A stretch of DNA of 64,000 nt, taken from Centroscyllium fabricii (Eukaryota). A model generated the notes under the pieces. It searched no databases and was not told the origin of the DNA. It saw only the letters and a list, made by a program, of their open reading frames with translations. The position numbers and the translations under genes were made by a program. The stretch covers positions 433,318,001 through 433,382,000 of the forward strand of contig JBNRSN020000003.1 of NCBI GenBank assembly GCA_051313645.2. The letters run 5' to 3'. Of this stretch, positions 10,323-61,208 are shown one piece after another (the stretch's first letter is position 1; the number at the start of each line of letters is the position of its first letter).

Positions 10323-10581
10323 TGTGGCATTTCCACATCGGGGAATAAATGACTGTACATAATAATTGTATGAAAAATCCCCTTTAGCTTACAGGTTTCC
10401 CCTCCCCTTTAAGAGAGAGGAAAACAGACCCAGTGTGACCAAGTGTGACATCATCGCGCATTCCGGAATGCAGGCTTTTTCAGTTTAGAATGTTTTTGGA
10501 GTTTGAACTATAAAGATCAATTGTTGTGCAGTTGCTCCTCCAAGTTGGCAGATTTATTTGTTGGGAGATCAATCTCCTACA
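10323..10581 (+). repeat. 5' LTR (259 bp)
   Basis: TGTGGCATTTCC...TCTCCTACA, a direct repeat of 14539-14780, followed immediately by the PBS. Confidence 0.95.
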
Positions 10582-10582
10582 T

Positions 10583-10592
10583 TGGTGACCCC
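10583..10592 (+). promoter_or_regulatory. Primer-binding site, tRNA-Trp type
   Basis: TGGTGACCCC is complementary to the 3' end (GGGGUCACCA) of vertebrate tRNA-Trp. Confidence 0.85.
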
Positions 10593-10627
10593 AGTCGGTA
10601 AATGTTTTTACTGACCCACGCAGCATA

Positions 10628-13600
10628 ATGGCTACCGGTGCTGCGGCCTTAACACTCCCTTCTTTTTGGGAGAAACAAGCGACTGCATGGTTTGCTCATG
10701 CAGAAGCCCAGTTCTCCCTGCGGAAAGCTGAGGACGATGAAGAAAAATACCTCCATGTTGTGTCGGCCCTCGAGAGCTCCACCGCTGCGGAAGTCATCGG
10801 CCTTCTGGGGAACCCTCCAGAAGCCGGCAAGTATAAAGGCAGTTAAGGACAGACTCCTGCAGGTTTTCAGTTTATCCAAGGAGAAGAGAGCACGCAGGCT
10901 TCTCTCGCTACCAAGCCTTGGTGGCTCCACCCCGACCCAGTTAATGAGCCGAATGCTCACTCTTCTGGAGTCCGAGCCACAATGTTTCCTTTTCCATGCT
11001 TTATTCTTGGCCCAGCTTCCTCAACAAGATCAAACTGCCCTCGCCGGTTCCCCAATCACGGACTGAGTCAAGCTCGCAGCCGCGACAGACAAAATCCTCT
11101 CCGTGGCCTGGCTCGGCTGCGGAGCCACGAGGTTCCCCTCCCCCACGGAGCGCAACCTGACTTGTCAGGCTGTAGGCCTCTGTTATTATCACGTACGTTT
11201 TGGCGCGAAGGCCCACCGTTGCCGCCCGCCTGCACATTCGCCACCAAGAAAAAGGTTACCCTGCCCGACTCACCGAGTACTCACCACTGGCAGATTTTGT
11301 CTGAGCGTCCTCCTGCCGCCACGATGACTGTCGGTTCAGCAGGGAAGCTCCTCTACATCATCGATTCGCTTTCTGGACGGCGATTCCTCTGTGACACAGG
11401 CGCGCAGTGCAGTATTATCCCAGCTTCCACCCACTATAAACTGGTGGGTCGGAGTGGACCTCCCCTCGTGGCGGCTAATGGCGCTGCCATCCGCACTTAT
11501 GGAAAACGTCGAGCGGAAATCTGCTTCAGTGGACAGTGGTTTACCTGGGGCTTCATCACGGCCTCAGTCTCACAGCCCCTGCTTGGCGCAGATTTCCTGT
11601 GTGCCCACTGTCTTCTGGTCGACGTCCGTGACTGACGCCTCATCAACTCGGCCACATTTAATTGTTTGTTGTGCCAACGCAGCAACACACCGGCCCTCGT
11701 CCTGTCCTGCGCCTCGCCCGCACTGGATGACTACTCTCGTCTTCTGGCAGATTTTCCTGGATTCATGCTGTCAACTTTTTCGGCCACGTCGAATAAACAC
11801 GGCGTTGAACACCACATTGCCACCACAGGTCCCCTGGTGTATGCTCGCGCCCGGATCCAGCCAAGATGGCCGTGGCCAAGGCAGAGTTCGCGACAATGGA
11901 AAAATTGGGCATCGTTCGCCACTCGAATAGTCCCTGGTCTTCTCCTCTTCACATTGTCCCTAAGCCGGGCGGTGGCTGGCGACCCTGTGGCGATTACAGG
12001 AGGCTCAATGACGCTACCACACCTGATCGCTACCCCATACCGCATATCCAGGACTTCTCGCCACACCCGGCGGGAAAATTCATCTGCTCAAAAGTGGATC
12101 TGATTATCATCCATTACCCGTTCACCAGGCTGACATCCAGAAGACCACGGTCATCACCCCTTTTGGCCTTTTTGAATTCCTAAGAATGCCTTTCGGGCTG
12201 AAGAACGCTGCGCAGGCTTTCCAATGGCTTCTGGATTCGGTGCTTCGGGACCTCCCTTTTCTTTTCATCTACCTCGACGACATCCTCGTGGCCAGCACTG
12301 ACAAAGCACAGCACATCTCACAATTGCGTTCTCTCTTCCAGAGCCTGAGTCAGCACAGGTTCATCGTCAACCCCGCTAAATGTCAATTCGGACTGGCTCA
12401 GATCGATTTTCTCGGCCATCAGAGGATGGGGCAATTCCTCTCCCGGCCAAAGTACAGGCAGTATCGGATTTTCCTCAGCCCACTTCGGCCAAAGCTCTTC
12501 AAGAGTTCCTGGGTATGGTTAATTTTTATCATCGTTTTGTACCGAAGGCTGCTCTCCTCATGCGCCCTCTCTACGAAGCCACCAGGGGCAAGACGGGCAA
12601 ACATCCGCCATCATGGACGGAAGAGATGTCCTCAGCATTCGACAAAACCAAACGGGTGTTGGCCAATGCCACGCTTTTGGCACACCCTATTCCAGGCGCC
12701 ACGGTCGCCCTCACAACTGACATCTCCGACTACACCATTGGAGTGGTGCAGCAGCAGTGGGTCGATGGTGATTGGCAACCACTAGCGTTCTTCAGTCGCC
12801 AACTGCGCAAGAACGAGCGGGCATATAGCACATTTGACAGAGAGCTACTCGCCTTGTTTTTGGCAGTCACCAGATTCTTGCTAGAAGCTCGACCTTTCAC
12901 AGCATTCGTTGATTATAAACCGCTAACTTTCGCCATAGCAAAAACTGCAGAACCTTGGTCTGTGCGCCAGCAGAATTTCATCTCTGAATTTGCCATCGAC
13001 ATCCGCCACGTGACCGGTAAGGAAAACATGGTGGCAGATTGCCTCTCACGACCCTCTCTTCACAGCGTGCACCTGGGCGTGGATTATGCCAGTATGGCAA
13101 AGGACCAGGCATCTGATGCCGACCTCCAGTCCCAAGATCGGCGGTTACTGGCCTCAGCCTAGCCGACATTCATTTCCAGGCAGCTGGTAGAACTCTTCTT
13201 TGTGACGTGTCGGTTAAATATCCTCGGCCTGTAGTTACATTCTCCTGGCGTAGGTGAGTTTTTGATATCATCCATGGGCTTTCTCATCCAGGTATGCGGG
13301 CATCCCAGAAGCTAATGGCAGTGAAGTTCGTGTGGCCCGGTCTACACAAGGATGAGAGAGACTGGACGAACACATGCGTGGTTTGCCAGAGGGCGAAAGT
13401 CCATCAACATACCAAAGCGGCACTGGAATTCTTCCCCGTGCCAGAGAGAAGGTTTGACCACATTCATGTAGACCTGGTTGGCCCACTACCGCCATCGCAA
13501 GGCTACATGCACCTACTCAGTATAGTCGACCGCAACACAAGGTGGCTGGAGGTAGTCCCTCTAACCTCCACCACCGCGGCCGACGTAGCCAGGGCGTTTG

Positions 13601-14510
13601 TATCATCGTGGGTGGCCAGATTCGGAGTTCCTGCCGACATTTAGTCAGACAGAGGTCCTCAGTTTACTTCTCAGCTGTGGAATGCCATCGCTCATGGGCT
13701 AGGAGCAAAACTCCATAGAACCACAGCCTACCATCCACAGGCGAATGGCCTTTCTGAACGTTTTCACAGATCGTTGAAGACCTCCTTGCGGGCCTGCCTG
13801 TTAGATTCCTGCTGGAGAGACAAGTTGCCCTGGGTTCTACTGGGACATCGTACTGCACCCAAAGAAGACCGCAACTCTTCTTCGGCCGAAATGGTTTGTG
13901 GGCAACCGCTCCGAGTTCCGGGTGAATTTCTTCCCCTCGTCAGGGAGCCGTGGCCCGCTTCAATACAACGATCAATACACCAAGAGGCGACCAAGTGTTT
14001 TCGGCCGGTGTCCACGTTCCAGCATGGCCCTCAGCTCTCACACATTCCAAAAGACCTACACCAGGCGGAATTCGTTTTCGAGCGCTGGGACGCGCACAAA
14101 GATCCTCTTCAGGCCCCTTACACGGGGCCCTTCCATGTCTTAAGAGGCGGGAGACAAATCTTTTATTCTGGACGTCGGCGGAAAGCCGGACTACGTCTCG
14201 GTGGATTGTCTTAAGCCGGCTCACCTAGAGCTCAGTGCTCCGGTCCATACGGCTCTTCCTCCACATCACGGCAGACCTCCTGCAACACCCCTGTCATCAG
14301 CCAGTCCGCTTGCCTGCCAATAATAATAATAATCTTCGTTTTCGTCATCGTCACCCGCAGACCATCCTGCCAGTCTGTCGTCAGACCAGCCGCTGGACTC
14401 GCCTGTTCTTCAACCTGCCAGCCTCCCAGACACTCCTCCTCGTCCACCGTCCGAGTACTACAGCCGCTACGGCCGTTTGATCAAGCCACCTGAACGATTG
14501 ACTTTTTCAG
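10628..14510 (+). pseudogene. gag-pol pseudogene of the Gypsy element (multiple frameshifts and stops)
   Basis: Gag: LPSFW..AWF..AEAQF and CYYH-x9-C. Protease: LCDTGA. RT: WRPCGDYRRLN, MPFGLKNAAQ, YLDD. RNase H: LAFFSR, YSTFDRELLA, VADCLSR. Integrase: H..H..CVVC, HVDLVGP, SDRG, ERFHR, GPF. Confidence 0.95.
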
Positions 14511-14538
14511 TTAAAGAGGATTCTGGGGGGGGGGCACA

Positions 14539-14780
14539 TGTGTCATTTCCACATCGGGGAATAAATGACTGCACATAATAATTGTATGTAAAATACCCTT
14601 TAACTTACAGGTTTCCCCATCCCTTTAAGAGAGAGGGAAAACAGACCCATTGTGACCAAGTGTGACATCATCGTGCATTCCGCAGGCTTTTTCAGTTTAG
14701 AATGTTTTTGGAGTTTGAACTATAAAGATCAGTTGTTGTGTAGTTGCTCCTCCGAATTGGCTGATTTATTTGTTGGGACA
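14539..14780 (+). repeat. 3' LTR (242 bp, with small deletions relative to the 5' LTR)
   Basis: Aligns with 10323-10581 with roughly 14 substitutions by hand count, 5-bp and 13-bp deletions and a 1-bp insertion. Confidence 0.93.
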
Positions 14781-15345: not shown

Positions 15346-15524
15346 CTAGATGTAAGTCATTGCACCTTTGGCATTTCTGTCCAAATAGACTTCCACATAG
15401 GATGTTGGAACGTATCCTTCCTCATCCTCGTTCCGTCGGACTCTCGTCCAACCGTCTCCTTTATCTTCCTCTATCACGTTCAGTGTTTCTCCTTCTGCCA
15501 TTGCTATTGTTCCTTCATTCTGAC
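15346..15524 (-). CDS. FNBP1: FNBP1 SH3 exon ending ...[22 protein letters not shown]
   Basis: SH3 motifs [11 protein letters not shown] and GYVPTSYV. Acceptor ttcag|, TAG stop at 15346-15348. An internal donor AAAG|GTGCAA would end the exon at 15366. Confidence 0.96.
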
Positions 15525-16439: not shown

Positions 16440-17245
16440 TTAGTCTGGATTCCTCCATAAAATGTACCATTTCTTGGTTGAAGCTATAGCCATCTCAGCT
16501 TCTCCCAACCCCGTAACTATTTGCTAGAAGGAACAAAACTGCCTACTGGTTGACTCTTCTGGTGATGTGACCTCTGGTCAGTGACCACCAATGTTGCCTC
16601 TATTTTCTTCCCCTGGCGCAGGCCCTTTAAATTTGCTGTGCGGCTGCACATTCTCTTCCAACGGCAGCAGCTGGTGGGCGGCCTGCGTGGAACCTCGTGA
16701 TTGATGCTCAACTGCACACCTTCGGGAGAACATTGGTGATCACCACCACAAACCCAGAGTTGTAGAAGCAAACCTGGATCCTTTGCACAGTGGCACACTG
16801 CTATGCTTTCAAATCCTTTCTTCCTTGCTGTCAAACACCATCAGTAAGCAATCATACTGGAAACATCTGTTATTTCCTCTCTGCCTCTAAAAAGCACAAC
16901 GCTAATGCAGTGTTCACCCTCTCCCTTTCTCTAGATTATCACGCACTTTACCACCACACCTAGCAAAAAGAAAACCATCTCAGAGTTTAGCTATGTGGGA
17001 ATGATCCAGTGGGAGATGAAAGGGAGTGACTATTAGATTTGTTCCACATATGGGGCAGCACCTCATCTCCATTTGAGCTCTAGCCTGAACAGCGTGTATG
17101 AGGTAAGTGAATTTACTGCGTAGAAAATTGCAGGAGCAATTTTGCAGCAAGCACATTTTGTTGGATCTCCAGGATTGAAAAAAATGTCCAAGGGGTTTCT
17201 AAGCCGTAGTTTGGCTGCCTTATTTTCTCTGCAGTATATATATAC

Positions 17246-17385
17246 CTTCGAAAGGATACATGGCTTTGCATGTGCCAATTGTTGCCAGTGTTTCTTCATC
17301 ATCAAACTCATCGTCAAATTCACTTTGTGCTGCAACTTTTAACTGAGGGTCCTGGTTCTGTTCTTCGGTGTAACTACCATCAGGG
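17246..17385 (-). CDS. FNBP1: FNBP1 exon, 140 nt (PDGSYTEEQ...[26 protein letters not shown]), acidic linker and SH3 start
   Basis: Lies within ORF 17220..17441. Acceptor gagcag| (a tandem NAGNAG), donor |gtatat, phase 2/1. Confidence 0.96.
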
Positions 17386-19257: not shown

Positions 19258-19951
19258 GGGCAACAGTCTAAAAATTTGCGCTATGCCTTTCAGGAGTGAG
19301 TTGGGAAACACTTCTACATGCAAAGGATGGTAGAAGTTTGGAACTCTCTTCTGCAAACTGCGATGGATTCCAAATCAATTGTTAATTTTAAATCTGAGAT
19401 TGACAGATTTCTGTTAACCAAAGGTATTAAGGGATATTGGGGCAAGAGCAGGCATATGGAGTTAGGTCACAGATCAGCCATGATCTCATTGAATGGTGGA
19501 ACAGACTCGAGGGATTAAATGGCCTCCTCCTGTTCCTATGAACTGTAGAACACAACATGTTGGTAGACTAATGTATCACGTCATTCTCAGTTCTATTTTT
19601 TTCTAAATAATTTATCCCATTTTAACTGACAATACATACAACTTCAGGTCATCAATGTACTTCAGGAGTAAATGGGGGATTCATACAGAACTATTACACA
19701 CAATGGTTAATAGATCTGTGAGTTAAGTTACCAGAAATGGCCATTGAAGCACATGGTACAAATGGGTTTGAGGCATAACCAGATGTGTTTCTGTAGAAAG
19801 AAGTGAGACAGGAGTAAGATGAGAAGGCAGATTTAGACCAGTCAAAAGGGTTGTTGCACCAAGTGGCCTTCATCTGTTCCAAAATGTTCAATGTTTCCTA
19901 TTTATGGACAGGTTCAAGTAGTTGTTATTGCAATTAGTAACCATACTGTAC

Positions 19952-20070
19952 CTCTCACGGTCTTGTGCACAGTTGTTGACAGCAGTGCTCTGCAACTCAA
20001 ACAACTCACTCTGTCGTCGTGGCTGATCAGTCTTGGCTGGTAAACGGCCTTCTACCTCAGCAAGCCATGC
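19952..20070 (-). CDS. FNBP1: FNBP1 exon, 119 nt ([40 protein letters not shown])
   Basis: Lies within ORF 19888..20118. Boundaries are cag| and |gtacag, phase 0/2. Contains the [11 protein letters not shown] and NNCAQDRES motifs. Confidence 0.96.
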
Positions 20071-20553
20071 CTGAAAACAATTGGAGGCAGGTGAATACTG
20101 AAGTACATGAAGATACAAGAGCGAAGTAGCTTTAACAGAGAGGACTGAATTACTTTCTCTGTAATTCTGAAAAGAAAAGCAAATAATTTTTCAAATTGTG
20201 CAGAAATAACCCTGATGGTTACAGATTACAATGCGAGTTCTATGCAGCATGCACAGTTAAAAAAATATGCAGTATTTTCAATAAAAATTAGATTTAATCA
20301 ACATGACTTGATGTGCTTGCAAATAATGTTAAAAGCACTATATGTGGTAACTCAGGTGAGCTGGGGTGGGCAGGAAGCAATAGTGACTGATACTCTGTTG
20401 GCTCAGTTTATAACTGCACGACTGTGTAGGAAGTGATACAAATCAGAGGTTCCGTGTTCAATTCCTTGCCTGTGCTTACTGGATCTCAACTATAATGGCA
20501 GTAGGGGAGCTACAATTTACACATTTCACTACTCCTGATCTTTGAAGGACGAA

Positions 20554-20784
20554 TGATGTGGAGGTGCCGGTGTTGGACTGGGGTGGACAAATGCAAGAAG
20601 TCACACAACACCAGGTTATAGTCCAACAGTTTTATTTTAAATCACAAGCTTTCGGAGCTTCTGCCCCTTTGTCAGGTGAAAGAGAAGCTTCTGTTTCACC
20701 TGACGAAGGGGCAGAAGCTCCGAAAGCTTGTGATTTAAAATAAAACTATTGGGACTATAACCTGGTGTTGTGTGACTTCTTGCA
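20554..20784. mobile_element. Palindromic Penelope-like (pLTR inverted pair) element with hammerhead motifs, copy 1
   Basis: About 100-bp inverted arms centred at 20687/20688. 13-bp TSD TTTGAAGGACGAA (20541-20553 and 20785-20797). Near-identical to 44974-45185. Confidence 0.85.
20696..20733 (+). ncRNA. Minimal type I hammerhead ribozyme motif
   Basis: TCAC-CTGACGA-A-GGGGC(AGAA)GCTCC-GAAA-GCTT-GTGA. It has stem I TCAC/GTGA, core CUGANGA, stem II, GAAA and a palindromic AGCT stem III, as in PLE hammerheads. Confidence 0.72.
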
Positions 20785-22828
20785 TTTGAAGGACGAAGGC
20801 ATTGTGACAACTTCAAACATATCTCGTGTTGAAACACAACATGCTGTTACACACAATCTACATATTAAAGGGCTGAAAGCCCTTTCTGTTGCGAAAGTTG
20901 AGGGGATTGATTGCACCATCTCGCAAAGCAATGTGGTTGCTACTTAAGGCATTATGGTCCTTCAGAAGGCCAGTAAAACTGAATGGTCTTATCTTGCTGA
21001 TACCAAAGTCAATGAAATCTCCAGCTCTCCCAAATACATGCCATCACTGCACCCTGGCTGATGTTACAGAGACCCCTTGTGGCTGCCTGAAATTATCTGT
21101 TGCCATAAAAGTTGAGTGCAGTCATTACCCTTCATAGCTACAGATAGAGCAGTGTGGGCAGATGACTATAGCTGCAGGTCCTCATCCAATAAGCATCCCC
21201 TTACTTAGATCCTCGTATCAACTGTGGTGCCTGTATATTCACTGGGGGCAGGAAATATCTGGTGGGATCTCTCTTTAAATGCTGCCTCACTCTTCTTTCC
21301 TGCATCCTCCCTTATAGGGAATATGATGTCTGCTCCCGAGAAGTCTCACATGTCCACAGGCAGTCAGAAGCAAGTCCAGGGCTGTGTAAGCCGATTTAAA
21401 AAAAATCAAATAAGTGGGTCGAGCTGCAGTTGATTGCTCCTCAAACTTTCTGCAATCTTCAGGCACAAAAACTCCTAATTTCTGTCAGTCTCAGCTGATC
21501 TTTATATTTCTAATTTTAATTGACTTCTACTGTATTGCAAGCATAAACCAGGAAATGCAAGGCTGCAGTGCCAGGGCCCTCATCGTCATATATATTTGAA
21601 TGAGCAGCATGGAGACTGTGGGCATATTGCTGGATGGGTCAAATCACAGTTGGAAATTCACTGGATCAATTATGGGACAGAAAACCTGCAAAAATGGCTT
21701 CTGCCCTCATTTGCCAGCCAAACGAATAACTTGCCCTGATTTTAGGCTCTGGACATGCAAGAACATTGTGGAATTTCAGGGCCATTGTGCAGAACTTCAC
21801 ATTATGTGACATCATGATGCCCCAGCCCAGTGACTTCATAAATGGGATCTGGGGGCAGTTTGCAAAATTCCTGATTATCACTGGACTAGGACAGCATGAT
21901 GTCACAGAAAATGGCATTCTATACAAAATGGCATCACCTTGAGTGCTTTCATTCGGCTGCTCCAAATAATAAAACATAAGAATAACTGCAAGACGTGTAA
22001 ATGTGTAAAGTCGCCTTATGAAATTTATAATTATGCAAGTGCTCATGACATTGGCCTTTTGTAATGTCATAACAGCATATGACAATCAGTAAAATCCTCT
22101 GGTATAGTTTCACTGACAAAGTGCTGATTTTCACCTCCCTTTCCTGAAGAGATTAGGAGCAGGACCTGTGGCCGAGTTCCTTTTTCCCTGGCATGAGGCA
22201 CTGATGCTAACTGCAGCATTTCCTATCGCCACCTTGGGTGAAACCAACTAACAGCACAGGCTAGAAATCAAATTGGCTGAAGAATTTTGAAGTTAGTTAA
22301 TTATAAACAAATGCAAGCTGCTAGCTGGTGCAATTCAACCCAATGCAAAAATGGAAAATGTGACGATGTTTTTTTCCATGCAGATCCACCAGGATAGTTT
22401 AAATCCTTTGCTGCTGGGAATCAGAAGCTGTTAATTCAGTTAAGGGTTGGGGGGAAACAAGGACACACTACGCAAGCTTTTGTGCTGGAAGCCAAATTAA
22501 ATATTGATTTACTTCACTCCTAAACGCCAAGCTCCAATGCCGTCTACTAATAAAGCTTGAGATTTAATTCTTGTTTAAAACAGTCTAAATATTTTTCTTG
22601 AGGGGGGGTGGGGAGTTTTCTGCTCAGCCAGTATAGTAAAGCAGAATATTTTTTTCAACATAATATGCAAGTTTAGCTCAGGTATAGTGATCAACAATGT
22701 GTTTTAACACCCAACTTTCGAAGAGCATCACAGCACCAATGTCGGACTTGAGGCCTGAGTGAGATTGCAGATGCATAGTATAAAACGTTTGAAAATTAAT
22801 CAGTAAACTATCCAAGAATGGAATTAAA

Positions 22829-27499: not shown

Positions 27500-28221
27500 T
27501 TTATTTATTCATTCATGGTATGTGGGCGTCGCTGGCAAGGCCAGCATTTATTGCCCATCCGTAATTGCCCTTCAGAAGGTGGTGGCCAGCCTCCGCCTTG
27601 AACCGTTGCAGTCCGTGTGATGAAAGTACTCCCACAGTGCTGTTAAGTAGGGAGTTCCAGGATTTTGGCCAAACGACGATGAAGGAACGGCAATATATTT
27701 CCAAGTCAGGATGGTGTGTGACTTGGAGGGGAACTTGGAGGTGGTGGTGTTCCCATGCGCCTGTTGTCCTCGTCTTTCTAGGTGGTTGAGGTTGCGGGTT
27801 TGGGAGGTGCTGTCGAAGAAGCCTTGGCGAGTTGCTGCAGTGCATCTTGTAGATGGTACACACTGCAGCCACGGTGCGCCAGTGGTGGAGGGAGTTAATG
27901 TTTAAGGTGGTGGATGGGGTGCCAATCAAGTGGCCTGCTTTATCCTGGATGGTGTCGAGCTTCTTGACTGTTGTTGGCGCTGCACTCATCCAGGCAAGTG
28001 GAGAGTATTCCATCACACTCCTGACTTGTGCCTTGTAGATGGTGGAAAGGCTTTGGAGAGTCAGGAGGTAAGTCACTCGCCACAGAATACCTAGCCTCTG
28101 ACCTGCTCTTGTAGCCACAGTATTTTTGTGGCTGGTCCAGTTAGGTTTCTTGTCAATGGTGACCCCCCAGGATGTTGATGATGGTGGATTAGACAATGAT
28201 AATGCCGTTGAATGTCAAGGG
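27500..28221 (-). mobile_element. Non-LTR retrotransposon (CR1/L2 group) RT C-terminus and 3' tail
   Basis: ORF 27513..28196 (GVTID..NWTSH...YKAQVRSVMEYSPLAW...LDTIQDKA). Tail ATAAATGCTGGCCTTGCCAGCGACGCCCACAT...GAATGAAT. Confidence 0.9.
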
Positions 28222-30452: not shown

Positions 30453-30585
30453 CTCAAATTTCTGAATCTCTTGTCGCAGTTTCTCGACAGTCTGCCCAAT
30501 TTCTGCCAGCCTGGGATCCACACTGTTCGGATCACCCATTTGAGGATTCTTGATGTATACATCCTTCATCTTTGTTAAAGCATCT
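30453..30585 (-). CDS. FNBP1: FNBP1 exon, 133 nt, HR1 domain ([44 protein letters not shown])
   Basis: [14 protein letters not shown] motif. Boundaries are cag| and |gtaat, and phase 2/0 fits both neighbouring exons. Confidence 0.96.
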
Positions 30586-31621
30586 CTGAGGATTTAAAAA
30601 AATATAAATTCAGTGCACCAATTTCTGTTATTCCAGTTGGAGCCCACTGTTAGTTATTTCAGTAATGTTGTTTGACACCAAGTGAAAGTAAATGGGATCA
30701 GTTTACGAGAAGGCTGTTTTGCAAGGAAACTATTAGCCAAATGTACACTCAATTCCACCCCCCCCCCCCGCCGCCCATCTATTGTGGCACTTGCTTGACT
30801 TGCGGAAAACAGGGAGTGTGATCTGCATACCCTGGTTTCAGCCTTTAATTACAAACCTTCCAAATTAAGGAGAGAAATGGGAGAAAAATGAATGATTTTA
30901 GCCATGTAAGTAAATGACTGGTGCCATGTTCATAGTAGGAGATGGTTACCGAAAAATCAACTTCCCCAAATGGCTTAGCTGATACACAGGGCTGGAAGGT
31001 TGATCCCGGGTTTGAGCTGAAATAATTGATCTCAGCCAGAGATGCTACAATTACCTCACGTTTATGAGGGAGGAATGGGGGAGGAAGGGAAGGAAGAACT
31101 TGCATTTAAAATGGCCTTATAAGGTCTTCAGAATATCTCAAAGCACTTCACAACCAAGTGCAGACACCGATATTATGTAGGCAAACTTCCCTCAGGAATA
31201 CTTTGCAGATGTGAGTCACACTGGATTTGAGAGTCACTTGCTACCTTTAAAACACTGCATCAGTACAGCTACATCATATCCTGTGTGACCATCACAAAGA
31301 TCGGGCAGTCTGATGCTTGCAACTAAATAAAATGCTTCCTAAAATATAATGTCCTGTATCGCTAAGCCTGTATTGACTTGATATTATTTGTAGACCTACA
31401 ATTGCTGTTACCTGCTGAAGTGCAAGTAATGCTGATGCACTTAATGTCCAATAAAGATTATAATGCAATGATGAAATAGATTTTGGCAGAACCTACAGTT
31501 CTCTATTACTTCAGCAGCACAAACCTACTGACCATATTTTTACACTGCAGTGAATGACTGTATAACATAAACTAGATAGAATTTTACAGCATAGAAACAG
31601 GCCATTTGGCCCAACAGGTCT

Positions 31622-31960
31622 TTTAAAAAAAAATATTTGTTCCGGGATGTGGGGTTGCTGGCAAGGCCAGCATTTATTGCCCATCCCTAAATCGCCTTCT
31701 TGAACTGCTGCAGTCCGTGTGGTGAAGGTGCTCCTACAGCACTGTTCGGGAAGGAGTTCCAGGATTTTGACCCAGCGACGATGAAGGAATGCTGATATAT
31801 TTCCAAGCCAGGATGGTGTGTAACCTGGAGGGGAACTTGCAGGTGGTGTTCCCATGCGCCTGCTGCCCTTGTGCGTCTAGGTGGTAGAGGTCGCAAGTTT
31901 GGGAGGTGCTGAAGAAACCGTAGCGATTTGCTGCAGTGCATCTTGTAGATGGTACACACT
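31622..31960 (-). mobile_element. 5'-truncated copy of the LINE family at 27500-28221, inserted into a CR1 tail
   Basis: VCTIYKMHCS...HHLQVPLQVTHHP. 6-bp TSD AGGTCT at 31616-31621 and 31961-31966. Confidence 0.85.
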
Positions 31961-33808: not shown

Positions 33809-34278
33809 TGGTGAATCTGCGTTGTACCCCCTCCTGAGGTGCAGTGTCCAAAACTGAATACAGTACTCCAAATAGGGTTTTGAATGAGGTTCTGTACAAT
33901 TGAAGCATCATGTCTTCACTTTCGCATTCTAAACTCCTCAAGATAAAAGGCCAACATTCTATTCGCCTTTCTGCTTGCTTTTTATACCTGTGCACTGTCT
34001 CTCCCCATTTGTCTTTCTCGGATCACCTCACGCTTCCCCACATTGAACTCCATCTGCCATAGTTTTGCCCACTCACTCGGTTTCTGTCCGTTTGCAACTT
34101 CCTGCTTCCATTTACACAACTTGCTGTGCCTCCCAACAGTGTCATCTCACTAATCCTTCATCCAAATCATCAATATAAATGGTGAAAAGCGGAGACCCCG
34201 GCACAGATCCCTGGGGAATACCACTTGTCACACACATCCTGCCAATCAGTGAACATTCCCTTTAACCCTACTATCTGT

Positions 34279-34569
34279 TCCTGGGACTAGGGACAGGGTC
34301 ACTGGCAAGGCTTGGAAGCTAAGCAGAGCCAGGCCTGGTTAGTACTTGGATGGGTGACCACCAGGGAATACCAGGTGCAGAAGGTCACGAAAGGAGCCCC
34401 GGGGAGGGGCGGTTGGCTGAAGATTGTCGGAAAGATGGAAGATGGAATGGCAGCGCACACAGACGCAGCGGCTTTGCTGGACTCTTGGGAGCTTGCAAGA
34501 TCACATTTCGTTGTTCACGTACTTGTACATTGGATAATGACAATAAAAGTTGAATTATTATTATTATTA
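34279..34569 (+). mobile_element. Composite 5S-derived SINE-like element with Rex1-type tail
   Basis: Order is a 32-nt leader, the 5S 3' two-thirds, a unique body, then the tail tttcgttg...gtacttgtac...aatgacaataaaagttgaa(TTA)n. 6-bp TSD ATCTGT at 34273-34278 and 34570-34575. Confidence 0.75.
34311..34384 (+). pseudogene. 5S rRNA-derived segment (about nt 44-117, the internal control region)
   Basis: cttggaagctaagcagagccaggcctggttagtacttggatgggtgaccaccagggaataccaggtgcagaagg has about 10 mismatches in 74 nt against vertebrate 5S as I recall it. The 5' third and the oligo-T terminator are absent. Confidence 0.92.
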
Positions 34570-35425: not shown

Positions 35426-36351
35426 CGGTTGAAGTTAAGGCACAATATTGGAGTTTACTACATTGTCTGCCAAAATTGAAAGTATTTAATTCAACAGCAC
35501 TAACAACCTTTGCCCTCAAGTACCAATAGTTAAAAAAATTAACTCATTTAAAAATAACTTGAGTGGTCCAATAGATTCCTTTGGGCACCTTATGGTTTTT
35601 CAAGGTGACCCAACATTCCCAGGCTAAGATCTCCAAGCAATGGTCTTTCTTGATGGTTTCTGCAAAAGGTGGTTCTACATACACAACCACTATGCACCTT
35701 CATCTCTTCCTAGTTCCTTTAAATATTCATTTTATTTTATTAATTCTGCCTTGATGGTTTCCTTTGAACTGACAACCTAACAAGCAGCGATAATATGGAG
35801 GGTGGGAGGGTCTCTACTGCATATAGTGGAAGAAAGATGCCATTCAAAGTATCTTACTTAACTCCCTCCCCCTCTCTTCTCCGTGTGGTTGTGATAATGC
35901 ACAGAGTTATTTTATAGGCATTATGTGGATTTAAAGAAAAACTAATGATCAGCTGTGCTAAAACCCGATATGTTAAGGGCCTTCTTCGTTGAATCACCAA
36001 ATATTTAGTGATTTTATCTTTATTTTTATTATCGAGTATGTACATTGGTCTTTAACTGGTGAGATTAGCTAATAGGTTTCCAGGGCATAAGATGAAGAGA
36101 GATCAAGAGTAAGATAATAACTAATTCAATGAAAAATTTCAATTACAAGTAACTGAGGATGCTAAATGCTCATTATAGAATTTTAACAGATAATGACTGT
36201 TGCATATTAAAAAAGGCATTTATGAATATGTTGCAGTACCACATAATATTGCTACTTAAAATGCTCTGCAAAGTACGGTCGTTAATTAATTGTGGTCAAT
36301 ACAATCAAATGAAGAAAAATATTTTCTTGTTGGTGGTAAGCTCCCTCTTAC

Positions 36352-36461
36352 CTTTGATCGCACTCTTTCTGAATTTCTTTATTAATCTCATCAATTTTTT
36401 GTTGAAGTTTCTTTCTCCGTTGCTCTGGTGGCAGATGACTGAAGTCTTCTGGTCCCGAGCC
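36352..36461 (-). CDS. FNBP1: FNBP1 exon, 110 nt, start of HR1 domain ([37 protein letters not shown])
   Basis: Hand translation gives the [16 protein letters not shown] signature of the CIP4/FBP17/Toca-1 family. Boundaries are cag| and |gtaag, phase 0/2. Confidence 0.96.
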
Positions 36462-38557
36462 CTGTCCAAGCCATAATCACACACGTCAGCACCTCAAGTG
36501 GATTTATACTTTTGGTCACACTTTTGTCTGGATGCCAAATTTAAATAGAGTAATTTAAAAATAATAATAACCCTTTCCAGTTTTGCTACCCCAGAGCTAA
36601 AATAATTTAGCCTGGTGACCAATATATAGGCCATTAGTCTACTTTAATAATCTGTTACTTAAACTCAGATAGACATTCATTCAGAATATTTTAGATTTGA
36701 CTTGGCGTTGACGTCCTGTTTCCTACATATTTCAATGCTCATTAGTAAAGGTTTAAAAAATTGCTCCTGAAACAATCCTGCATGTGTGTGGACACACACA
36801 ATAACCCAAAATGGCCCTTAAATGGCTGATACTTCACAAAGTACCTGTATAAACATCAGCTGCCACACAGAGTGGAGTCAGTGGACAATGCATAAACAAT
36901 TGAGTTGAAATTCCTTGGGAGTTTTGGCTCTCTCACTCTCTGGCAGAACCCCATGGAAAACACTGGAGATCCAGCCGTGGTTCCTGATGGGGCACATGCT
37001 GTAAACTATCCAAATTTTCAACACTGGACAATATACATCATTACAAAGGCTGCACCAGAGAAATGCAAGTGGTCAAAACTTCAGCTGCCCATGCCCACCA
37101 AAAGGAATTTGTCTCCACAGTTGGGGGGAAAGTCAAAGAATCCAAAGCAGATGAAGTGACTACTTTGAGATTAACATAATGAGAAAACCGAGTGTGGTTT
37201 CTTTACTCCCTATTCTTAAGGAAGGTGCATTTTCAAAATCTCTCTTCCTACCCTAAAGATACTTTTCGACTACCTAGACAGAAAAGGATTAAATTAACAA
37301 GTAATGCTGACAAATGGCATTCTTTTTATGAATAACATTTTGTAGTACAGATCGAGTGACAATAATTCCAACAACAGTATTGGCTGATTGATTAGTCTTT
37401 ACTCGATCACGCAAAAATGTTAATCGATTTTATGCACTCTAAGCCATTAACAAGGAAAATTAATCTGTATATTTCCCTTACTGATGCATGCACTTATGCA
37501 AAATTAAATTTATCCCTTTATAACTTTTCAGCAATGCACATCCTTTGAATTAAGTAACCGTCAGTTCTGTTTTTCCTTGAACCTTGCAGCACACAAATAT
37601 GTTCTTTCACACTGCAAGAAATAATATTCCACAAAATAATCCAGATTCAGTTGACAAGAATATGAATGATTTGAACAATAGATGTTTTCTAATCTTGCTC
37701 AGAGAGCAAGTGGCTCAGCCTCGATGCATCCTTTGCAGGCTGTGGAGTGCAGTGATAAGAGGATACAAGGAATTTCACATCTTTTGCTGCAGATATCATT
37801 CCACGTAATGACCATAAGGAGCGACCCTCAGCAAGCAATTCAGAGGAGAATGCAGACTTCTCAGAAATCTGGCTCCATCATTTGTCAGCTTTTAATGCTC
37901 CCATTCCAAGGAACTTAAAGCCCTGGAGCAGTTCAGAGGTTGCTTGCTCCTGGGTCAGGTGTCTAAAGTTGGGTTTGAGAGAAATGCGAAGGAGGAAAAT
38001 ATAAGTCAACTACACAAAAATACTCTGCGAATAAGACAGTACTTTCAGAAAAATGCCCATTGTGCTGGTGTGGAGAATTCTAATAATGCTGCCATTTTCA
38101 AGCAAAGGCATTTTTGTTTCCAGATTCACTTTACTGTTAGCATCTCCAATACAGGATTTATGAAAACCCATCTCACAAAGTTGAAATCCATCAGGAATTT
38201 GGACACAGCTGACCGAATTTAATAGAGATCGATAAAGGTTGATAATCTTTCACTCCAATTAAATTGTAGGATGCTGAACTTTCATGTGTACCTCTGGGTA
38301 GCTTGAAAAGGGCTGTAATGAAGGTGTAAGGAGTTAATTAGCAGACCAGAAGAAACAAGTAAAAGCATGACTAGAATCCTGGTCAATGAGCCCAAAGTCA
38401 TCTTGGCAGATGAAGGTCCATGTGCACCACACAAATTCTCACACACAAAAGTTATTAATGGTTTGGACACTGGCAAATTGTATTCATATTTGTAGTGTAT
38501 ATATCAGTGCATTTAAAAGGTTTTTATTCAAATGAATCCTGAAGTCAACATGCAATT

Positions 38558-44973: not shown

Positions 44974-45185
44974 TGATGTGGAGGTGCCAGTGTTGGACTG
45001 GGGTGGACAAATGCAAGAAGTCACACAACACCAGGTTATAGTCCAACAGTTTTATTTTAAATCACAAGCTTTCGGAGCGTCTGCCCCTTCGTCTGACACT
45101 TCACCTGACGAAGGGGCAGACGCTCCGAAAGCTTGTGATTTAAAATAAAACTGTTGGACTATAACCTGGTGTTGTGTGACTTCTA
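44974..45185. mobile_element. Palindromic Penelope-like element with hammerhead motif, copy 2
   Basis: Starts with the same TGATGTGGAGGTGCC as copy 1, has inverted arms of about 75-80 bp, and a 12-bp TSD ACAGTTTTTCTA (44962-44973 and 45186-45197). Confidence 0.85.
45101..45138 (+). ncRNA. Minimal type I hammerhead ribozyme motif
   Basis: TCAC-CTGACGA-A-GGGGC(AGAC)GCTCC-GAAA-GCTT-GTGA. It differs from copy 1 only in loop II. Confidence 0.72.
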
Positions 45186-45648: not shown

Positions 45649-46652
45649 AGGCGCGAAATTGGTGAGCGCATTATTTGGGGCGCTAAAATGGGCGCAGCGC
45701 TAAAATTAGCGCTAGAGCGCCCGATATTGGGTTTTGCGCCGGCCTTGCAGATTTTAGCGTTAAATTTAGCGTTGCACGGGTGCAAACACCCAATTTTGTG
45801 GCGCTAATTACCAATCACGGGCGCAGCGCTCCTTCAGCAACTCCTTGCTTTCCCATGAACTCTGGAGCCGGACAGGTCTTAAAGGGGGTCGGGGAAGCAG
45901 TGCATTGTGTGTCAACACCCCTTCCTCATCATCTCCCCAATCTCGGGCCGCCCGACCCCCCTCAGCATCTGCCCGATCTCGGGCCGCCCGACCCCCCTCA
46001 GCATCTGCCCGATCTCGGGCTGACCCCCCTCCCGCAGCATCTGTCCGATTTCGGGCTGACCCCCCTCCCGCAGCATCTGTCCGATCTCGGGCTGACCCCC
46101 CTCCCGCAGCATCTGGCCGATCTCGGGCTGACCCCCCTCCCGCAGCATCTGGCTGATCTCGGGCTGACCCCACTCCCGCAGCATCTGGCCGATCTCGGGC
46201 TGACCCCCCTCCCGCAGCAACTGGCCGATCTCGGGCTGACCCCCCTCCCGCAGCATCTGGCCGATCTCGGGCTGACCCCCCTCCCGCAGCATCTGGCCGA
46301 TCTCGGGCTGACCCCCCTCCCGCAGCATCTGGCCGATCTCGGGCTGACCCCCCTCCCGCAGCATCTGGCCGATCTCAGGCCGAAGAGGCTACTGAGGAAA
46401 GGGAGGGTCGCCCTTTTAGCAGCGCAGCAGCGGCCACTCAGACCCTCAGCAGCGCTTGCCAAAGCTGGCGTTGGCAACGCTGCGCCGGGGGGACTGGCGC
46501 AAAGGCGAATTTTAGGGTGCAGCCCAGCGGGCGGGCGTTGCACCCGGATATGCACGACGATTGCCGATCACAAATTAGCGCGCGCTAACATTAACATTTA
46601 GCACCATTTTTCGGCGCTAAACGGACGGCGCGAAGGCGCGAATTTCACGCCC
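45649..46652. mobile_element. Harbinger-like MITE containing a minisatellite
   Basis: Imperfect TIR AGGCGCGAAATT / AATTTCACGCCC, flanks ACA and ATA, and GCGCTAA-rich arms like those of 15804-16439. Confidence 0.75.
45912..46379. repeat. 36-bp minisatellite, 13 copies (CTGACCCCCCTCCCGCAGCATCTGGCCGATCTCGGG)
   Basis: Head-to-tail units with no spacers. It appears as a 12-aa periodicity in the overlapping ORFs on both strands. Confidence 0.95.
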
Positions 46653-50387: not shown

Positions 50388-51208
50388 TTTTTATTCATTG
50401 ATGGGATGTGGGCGTCGCTGGCTGGCTAGGCCTGCATTTAGTGCCCATCCCTAATTGCCCTTGAGAAGATGGTGGTGAGCCGTCTTCTTGAACCGCTGCA
50501 GTCCATATGGTGTAGGTACACCCACAATGTTGTTAGGAAGGGAGTTCCAGGATTTTGGCCCAGCGGCAGTGAAGGAGCGGCGATACAGGTCCAAGTCAGG
50601 ATGGTGTGTAGCTTGGAGGGGAACTTGTAGGTGGTGCTGTTCCCATGCATCTGCTGCCCTTGTCCTTCTAAGTGGTAGAAGTCGCGGGTTTGGAAGGTGC
50701 TGTTGAAGGAGCTTTGGCGAGTTGCTGCAGTGCATCTTGTAGATGGTACACACTGCAGCCACAGTGCGCCGGTGGTGGAGGGAGTGAATGTTGGAGGTGG
50801 TGGATGGAGTGCCAATCAAACGGCCTGCTTTATCCTGAATGGTGTCGAGCTTCTTGAGTGTTGTTGGAGCTGCACTCATCCAGGCAAGTGGAGAGTATTC
50901 CATCACACTCCTGACTTGTGCCTTGTAGATGGTGGAAAGGCTTTGGGGAGTCAGGAGGTGAGACACTCGCCGCAGAATTCCCAGCCTCTGGCCTGCTCTT
51001 GTAGCCACAGTATTTATCTGGCTGGTCCAGTTCAGTTTCCGATCAATGGTAACCCCCAGGATGTTGATAGTGGGGGATTCAGCGATGATAATGCCATTGA
51101 ATGTCATGGGGAGATGGTTAGAGTCTCGCTTGTTGGAGATGGTCATTGCCTGGCACTTGTGTGGTGCGAATGTTACTTGCCACTTGTCAGCCTAAGTCTG
51201 AATGTTGT
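50388..51208 (-). mobile_element. Non-LTR retrotransposon (CR1/L2 group) RT C-terminus and tail, same family as 27500-28221
   Basis: ORF 50451..51146 is open for 231 aa (ILGVTIDRKLNWTS...YKAQVRSVMEYSPLAW...). Confidence 0.92.
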
Positions 51209-60400: not shown

Positions 60401-61208
60401 GGGGGGTAATTTTGACGGAAGGGCGGGAACTGGTCGGGGCGGCTTCCGGTCCCGCCCGCCCAACCCGCTGGGAAGCCCACGCAATTTTAGGCTAATGAGG
60501 TTGTTAAATCCCTGTCGGCGGCAGTGGGAGGTAATTAGGTGAATTGAGTCGGGCTGCAGCGGAGCTGCGAGCACTTTGATTCACAGTTCCAGCACTGGTT
60601 GTTGTCAGTTCCCATGGCAACACTCCACTGTGACACCACAGTGGAGTGGAGCCAACGGGAAAGGCCAAGTGCTGGTGACTGACAGGTGGGCGGGCGGGCT
60701 CCGAATCGCTCACAGCTTGGCACCGGCTGTGAGGACATGGTGAGAACTGAGATTGCTCAGTTTCTGTTCTCAGCTGATACTGAAGGCAGAACGGAGTTAC
60801 TATCTCCTCTAAGGTGCTGGAGGCATGCCAAGCATTTGGCAGCATGTCCTTCAAACCTTAAAGGAGAAAGTAATAAATTCAGGAAGTCACACAACACCAG
60901 GTTGTAGTCCAGAAGTTATAACCAGTGCTGTGCTCCCGCTGGGTTTCACCCAGCAGGGTTTAAGGTGGCGGGGTTAGGGCGGAAAACATGGCAAAATGGC
61001 TGAGGGCCCTTAAAATGGCATTAAAGATGCCAATTAAGGGCCCATAACGAGGTGACAACCCATCCCCGCCGGCGGGAAGGTTTCGGAGCGGGTAATCTGG
61101 GGGCGGGAAAATGAGAAAGCGGCGGGGATGTCGGGTCCCGCCGGTTCCGCTATTTTGCCGGCCGGGCCGCCCAAAACCCCGCCTCACGGGGACATGAAAA
61201 TTCCCCCC
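60401..61208. mobile_element. PIF/Harbinger-like MITE
   Basis: TIR GGGGGG(T)AATTTT / AAAATTCCCCCC, 3-bp TSD ATT (60398-60400 and 61209-61211), GC-rich subterminal arms. Confidence 0.82.

Follow-up and report, generated by a model that had tools for sequence, protein, structure and literature searches.

A Palindromic Insertion Probably Derived from a Penelope-Like Element and Carrying a Minimal Hammerhead Motif in a TOCA-Family Intron of Centroscyllium fabricii

General features of the locus

The window analysed here was a 64,000-nt stretch of the Centroscyllium fabricii genome (assembly GCA_051313645.2, contig JBNRSN020000003.1, positions 433,318,001 to 433,382,000 of the forward strand). A TOCA-family gene (HR1 plus SH3 domains) was represented by five exons in frame on the minus strand: two HR1 exons (36351–36476 and 30453–30585), two further exons (19952–20070 and about 17245–17385), and an SH3 exon ending near 15349. 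This host gene is one that we take to be FNBP1 rather than FNBP1L or CIP4. A palindromic insertion (copy 1) lay in the host intron 30452–20071, and the window contained a second complete copy (copy 2) and a short diverged fragment (copy 3) of the same repeat. The insertion was very probably derived from a Penelope-like element (PLE) and displayed a known PLE architecture in its smallest form; its components, together with the flanking host exons and the other copies, are collected in Table 1.

Table 1. Coordinates of copy 1, its hammerhead motifs, the flanking host exons, and the other copies in the window
Feature	Position	Strand	Remark
Target-site duplication, left copy, 13 bp	20541..20553	+	Last A also fits the element end
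PLE tail (3′ end of pLTR), 34 nt	20554..20587	-	A/C-rich when read on the minus strand; confined to one arm
Left arm, 5′-truncated pLTR fragment	20588..20687	-	Strand is that of the host pre-mRNA
Broken hammerhead, left arm	20642..20679	-	Core CUGACAA; G8 lost via the change at 20670, a CpG site
Head-to-head junction	20686..20693		Symmetry centre 20687/20688; unlike the copy 2 junction
Right arm, tail-less 5′-truncated pLTR fragment	20688..20788	+	Stops at the inner family end point; final 4 nt within the duplication
Intact minimal type I hammerhead	20696..20733	+	Antisense to the host pre-mRNA; fits the consensus in PMC4209133 supplement Fig. S3
AATAAA in A/U-rich stretch after the hammerhead	20739..20744	+	Candidate poly(A) signal
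Target-site duplication, right copy, 13 bp	20785..20797	+	
Host exon downstream of the insertion	19952..20070	-	Its 3′ splice site and the tail end are 484 nt apart
Host exon upstream of the insertion	30453..30585	-	Second half of the HR1 domain
Copy 2, same tail, other centre	44974..45185		12-bp duplication 44962–44973/45186–45197; right arm about 8 nt shorter
Copy 3, short diverged pLTR fragment	60875..60920	-	Joined to a G+C-rich repeat

Structure of the copy 1 insertion

The two arms of copy 1 were 96% complementary with zero spacer, being three substitutions and one indel apart, and the 34-nt tail was without a partner in the opposite arm. An exact 13-bp direct repeat bounded the insertion; as a gauge of chance, 111 of the 63,600 13-mers of the window recurred 200–300 nt downstream. 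The near-perfect palindrome of roughly 200 bp, the 34-nt unpaired end, and the 13-bp target-site duplication described in the initial annotation were all confirmed. The 231-nt copy 1 RNA had a folding energy of −171.1 kcal/mol (z = −22.8), and none of 200 shuffled sequences was equally stable.

Both boundaries of the insertion were blurred: (i) the A at 20553, at the left, belonged to the duplication and was also the point where most family members ended, and (ii) positions 20785–20788, at the right, lay in the duplication yet also paired with the left arm. With the hammerhead strand taken as sense, the insertion consisted of two copies (about 100 to 135 nt) of one segment with their 5′ ends joined, the left (minus-strand) copy extending 34 nt further at its 3′ end. 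The tail measured 34–36 nt in copy 1 and about 42 nt in copy 2. The eight letters of the copy 1 junction recurred at 20656–20663, and this 8-mer was possibly a short templated filler.

The hammerhead motif

The intact motif in the right arm was composed of stem I (20696–20699/20730–20733), the core CUGACGA (20700–20706) followed by one extra A, a 5-bp stem II (20708–20712/20717–20721), GAAA (20722–20725), and AGCU (20725–20728), with the cut predicted after 20729. A motif descriptor gave two matches in the window, both on the plus strand (20700 in copy 1 and 45105 in copy 2), and none in 60 simulated windows, which upheld the complete minimal hammerhead described for the plus arm in the initial annotation. 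The Rfam search of the window yielded 10 matches at E values up to 5, the hammerhead family being absent from them; two miRNA families matched over copy 1 below the gathering score, and these matches mirrored the hairpin shape.

All features of the PLE consensus were present, namely CUGANGAH, the G10.1–C11.1 pair, GAAA, a palindromic helix III, and a short helix I, and the U-rich and AU-rich flanks and the extra base between positions 9 and 10.1 were likewise as in that consensus. The earlier assignment to the PLE-type minimal hammerheads agreed at every position with the consensus in PMC4209133. Compared to the minimal PLE hammerheads depicted there (Cervera and de la Pena 2014, PMC4209133, Fig. 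S3), stem I matched the lamprey Poseidon example exactly and helix III had the letters of the turtle example; no shark sequence was found in the supplement text searched. The same source reported monomer cleavage as absent and dimer cleavage as low for metazoan PLE minimal hammerheads, and it noted opposite-strand hammerhead pairs in Schistosoma 100–700 bp apart, while the two motifs of copy 1 were 17 nt apart within a perfect hairpin.

The left-arm motif was broken by a CpG transition at 20670; the intact letter at this position was found in about 96% of the family depth in the contigs of run X1 (see below). Other subfamilies, recognized in contigs with loose ends at 20658, had U, C, or G at N7, a different loop II, and A-U where copy 1 had G-U in stem II, with the core and stem I unchanged and stem II still paired. 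Stem covariation had been put forward as a check on the motif: pairing was kept across the subfamilies, but the stem II change seen among the subfamily contigs was one-sided (G-U versus A-U) and no two-sided covariation was seen there, so this variation in sequence was consistent with the structure, short of two-sided covariation.

The unconstrained fold of copy 1 was the hairpin on either strand (−176.2 kcal/mol for plus and −168.9 kcal/mol for minus); forcing the hammerhead stems gave −109.8 (plus) and −111.7 (minus) kcal/mol, a cost of 57–66 kcal/mol, and the stem II pair probabilities were at most 3e-17. Cofolding of two hammerhead copies gave a swapped stem II pairing and no helix III dimer, a result that was uninformative because nearest-neighbour folding leaves the core unmodelled.

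Since the host gene was on the minus strand, its pre-mRNA would contain the intact hammerhead as the complement and the broken left-arm motif in the sense orientation. A hammerhead at work at the host locus was thus not upheld, the intact motif being antisense to the pre-mRNA and buried in the hairpin. The hammerhead was most likely an inactive passenger, because it was on the wrong strand or broken in its core and, as modelled by folding, sequestered in the hairpin; self-cleavage at the copy 1 locus would be unlikely. The sole likely effect on the host was predicted to be a dsRNA stem of about 100 bp in the intron, 484 nt upstream of the splice acceptor, and copy 1 was probably a recent and neutral intronic insertion. 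Of the dsRNA in FNBP1 pre-mRNA proposed in the initial annotation, a stem of about 100 bp stood as a possible, predicted structure, in a gene that its domains place in the TOCA family with FNBP1 as the presumed member.

Family ends in public sequencing contigs

The contigs of four public runs (X1, X3, X5, and X10) were aligned to 19900–20700, a stretch covering the left flank, the tail, and the left arm. The family was very abundant: 50,902 contigs of X1 were aligned, nearly all of them on the element. Among the loose ends listed for each run were (i) 516, 247, and 181 contigs at 20553, 20589, and 20595 in X1; (ii) 525, 105, and 207 contigs at 20553, 20588, and 20589 in X3; (iii) 85, 17, and 81 contigs at 20553, 20554, and 20596 in X5; and (iv) 17, 5, and 5 contigs at 20553, 20555, and 20589 in X10. 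Because the best-supported loose ends among those listed clustered at 20553 and 20588–20596 in all four runs, the family ended at two places, at the tail end itself and in a zone lying 35–43 nt further inside. The letters past the loose ends were mutually unlike (agreement 0.34–0.44 for most of the ends listed), as expected from many insertion sites; those beyond the tail hinted at an ATG directly after it, with low agreement (0.35).

Two minority joints were also present: (i) the tail end joined to the inner end on the opposite strand (reference 20553/20588), found in 15 contigs each of X1 and X3 and in none of X5 and X10, and (ii) the tail repeated in tandem (reference 20586/20551), found in 8, 7, 0, and 1 contigs of X1, X3, X5, and X10, respectively. 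Such joints may stem from palindromes in tandem or from insertion into an older copy, or they may have been left by a unit that was circular or multimeric.

A 964-nt contig of organism B matched the left flank up to and including 20553, after which it ran on for 661 letters of non-element sequence. As judged from the left flank, the right flank lying outside the aligned stretch, organism B was a relative that probably has the empty site, and the insertion would have occurred after the A/B split; the flank differences in this A/B comparison were 16/384 and 18/220.

Comparison of the complete copies

Copy 2 had an intact hammerhead on the plus strand at 45105 and a minus-strand motif cut inside the core (45094–45099), its left arm ending within the hammerhead core. 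In both complete copies each of the two family end points was used once, the tail end on one side and the inner point on the other: the right end of copy 1 was the mirror of 20588–20592, and that of copy 2 was the mirror of 20596. In loop II the two arms agreed within each copy, both reading A in copy 1 and both reading C in copy 2.

Because copies 1 and 2 differed in centre, right end, and duplication length, the palindrome was probably a new product of every insertion event and not the copy of a fold-back master, a comparison made on two complete copies. The loop II letter shared by the arms of each copy is most simply explained if each event drew its palindrome on one source; alternatively, it could come from two palindromic masters or from conversion between arms.

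The broken hammerhead and the tail-bearing arm were on the minus (host-gene) strand in both complete copies, possibly by chance at n = 2, the location of copy 2 inside the host gene being presumed. Selection against a host-sense ribozyme was considered and set aside, given that there were two copies and that the change in copy 1 was a CpG transition.

Comparison with known Penelope-like elements

Membership in the PLEs was argued from four features, namely the ribozyme motif, the tail, the inverted arrangement, and the duplications. The PLE features present in the insertion were an inverted 5′-truncated copy placed head-to-head, a one-sided tail, and short duplications of variable length (13 and 12 bp). 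PLE insertions are described as having a high degree of 5′ truncation, an inverted truncated copy, and a 30–40-bp tail on one end (PMC8557442), the tail being also described in PMC3846280 and PMC11167929; head-to-head orientation, palindromic junctions, and 8–10-bp duplications are reported in PMC3846280, where pLTRs alone are said to be able to mobilise sequence in trans. Compared to the insertions of endonuclease-bearing (EN+) PLEs in these sources (Arkhipova et al. 2013, PMC3846280; Craig et al. 2021, PMC8557442), the insertion shared the layout, the palindromic junction, the one-ended tail, and the duplication, but it was composed of just two pLTR stumps without an ORF or a direct pLTR pair, and hence the whole insert was palindromic; moreover, the two complete copies had duplications of 12–13 bp versus 8–10 bp in the rotifer examples.

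The sequence was also compared with PAc, the Poseidon element of Anolis carolinensis (Frangieh et al. 2024, PMC11167929). In that report, the tail is bounded by two neighbouring start sites of reverse transcription in vitro, nicking and extension take place on both target strands, hammerhead cleavage is unnecessary for insertion, and the PAc protein is a predicted dimer. As in PAc, two adjacent end points bounded an A/C-rich tail downstream of the hammerhead and the inner site spanned about 8 nt; the inner site was 50–58 nt past the predicted cut here versus 85–92 nt in PAc, a comparison of layout and not of sequence kinship. Inverted junctions were seen here and are unaddressed in the available text of the PAc paper.

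An ORF for RT or GIY-YIG was not found in the window: no PLE-type Pfam hit was obtained in 254 plus 9 frames, a scan that likewise missed two LINE-like fragments. The scan comprised 254 of the 295 frames that ran without a stop for at least 62 aa, the minisatellite at 45.6–46.7 kb having been excluded beforehand; 35 frames of the LTR-retrotransposon region were omitted, one of which was scanned separately, as were six others. One weak Pfam hit below the cut-off was taken as chance. The repeat had no matches in viral contigs, metagenome contigs, or prokaryote genomes, as expected for an animal repeat. In a literature search with subscription journals, Repbase, and Dfam outside its scope, the 13-letter repeat word was not found, and nothing relevant on a palindromic non-autonomous Penelope in shark was found in the literature searched outside subscription journals.

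Origin of the palindrome

Copy 1 was very likely a dead-on-arrival insertion of an endonuclease-bearing PLE, in which two severely 5′-truncated pLTR ends were placed head-to-head and the palindrome was made in one event. Read outward from the 3′ end of a target strand, each arm was antisense to the element RNA and began at one or the other family end point; the overlap between target end and element was 1 nt at the left and 4 nt at the right in copy 1, and 1 nt and none, respectively, in copy 2. How PLEs form inverted ends is stated as unresolved in PMC8557442.

Within this PLE reading, two-ended priming was preferred, with a chance put slightly above even. In this scheme, the PLE protein would cut both target strands with nicks staggered by 12–13 nt, and each freed 3′ end would prime reverse transcription on pLTR RNA; one cDNA would start at the tail end and the other 35–43 nt further in, both would stall just 5′ of the hammerhead, and the two would be joined via a few self-complementary or filler bases. 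Self-priming, in which one cDNA folds back and copies itself, as proposed in PMC3846280, was the alternative within the PLE reading and was given a chance a little below even. Literature on Penelope twin priming with inverted copies and GIY-YIG was not found in a search with subscription journals outside its scope.

An unlikely alternative to such a one-event origin is a dedicated non-autonomous fold-back element, akin to the short non-autonomous insertion of the initial annotation, in which one or more PLE-derived palindromic masters are transcribed and re-inserted whole by the PLE protein in trans, possibly via tandem or circular forms. It would accommodate the abundance of the short segment (50,902 X1 contigs), the truncation point of both complete copies, no more than a few bases away from the 5′ side of the hammerhead, the joints of tail end to inner end in X1 and X3, and the mobilisation of sequence by pLTRs alone (PMC3846280). 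However, whole re-insertion fits poorly with copies 1 and 2 being unlike in centre, in the right end, and in the length of the duplication, and these differences made the dedicated element less likely than a product of each insertion; the joined ends numbered 15 contigs in X1, where the three ordinary end points given above had 944; and a perfect 100-bp hairpin would be a poor template and would conceal the hammerhead. The summed depth of the centre bin also fell about 50-fold short of the arm bins in X1 and was close to zero in X5, although this bin lies at the edge of the aligned stretch and gives a weak measure.

It is very doubtful that the fold-back unit itself replicates as a rod-shaped circular or multimeric RNA with a hammerhead per strand, viroid-like in shape and re-inserted by the PLE protein; the tail-end/inner-end joints of X1 and X3 (15 contigs each) are the expected trace of a circular form, or equally of tandem palindromes.

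The insertion had also been called retrozyme-like; in an element of the retrozyme type, the hammerheads would cleave as dimers to give circular RNA. In non-LTR retrozymes the units follow one another in direct tandem and every unit has its own hammerhead; these elements derive from pLTRs and are reported in one cartilaginous fish (bioRxiv 10.64898/2026.07.22.740005). The insertion was like them in being short, non-coding, and pLTR-derived and in having a type I hammerhead with a palindromic helix III, but it was an inverted pair without a direct tandem, the motifs faced opposite ways, and just one of them was intact per copy. Furthermore, the host-transcribed strand had no intact core in either copy, helix III was minimal and unlike the canonical retrozyme form, and the hairpin would block hammerhead folding. 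The retrozyme label was therefore dropped, an element of this type being highly improbable here.

A MITE or other fold-back DNA transposon with hammerhead-like letters by chance is scarcely credible: the insertion was short, palindromic, flanked by a duplication, and high in copy number, but its termini were not mutual inverted repeats, an overhang of 34–42 nt stood at one end, the duplication length (13 versus 12 bp), the centres, and the right ends varied, and the hammerhead was without a match in the 60 simulated windows and kept its pairing across subfamilies. The initial view of a retro-derived, PLE-related sequence in the guise of a MITE was retained, on the strength of the one-sided overhang, the variable duplications and centres, and the PLE layout.

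The single locus is of little importance. The family, on the other hand, comprises very many minimal inserts with readable ends, centre, and duplication, and counting these could separate two-ended priming from self-priming; such palindromes are easily mislabelled as MITEs or microRNA hairpins.

Other repeats in the window

A search for a duplication flanking copy 3 came up empty, the best candidate being 7 nt. At 60875–61200, a diverged pLTR piece of 36–46 nt adjoined a G+C-rich self-folding stretch, and the same join was observed in organism C contigs (run X10, loose end 20630, depth 358), which made it a repeated chimera; it was perhaps a separate non-autonomous family mobilised by a PLE.

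A decayed LTR retrotransposon (10323–14778) was located just past the last host exon, with end direct repeats about 4.2 kb apart and frameshifted protease, RT (Pfam RVT_1), RNase H, and integrase-like frames. Three related LINE-like 3′ fragments (27513–28214, 31511–31960, and 50438–51191) had open frames of up to 246 aa and matched no Pfam family. A partial 5S rRNA-like match below the gathering score (34270–34386) was possibly the head of a 5S-derived SINE. A G+C-rich minisatellite of about a dozen or more 36-nt units (45843–46454) sat within a stretch with G+C-rich inverted-repeat-like ends.
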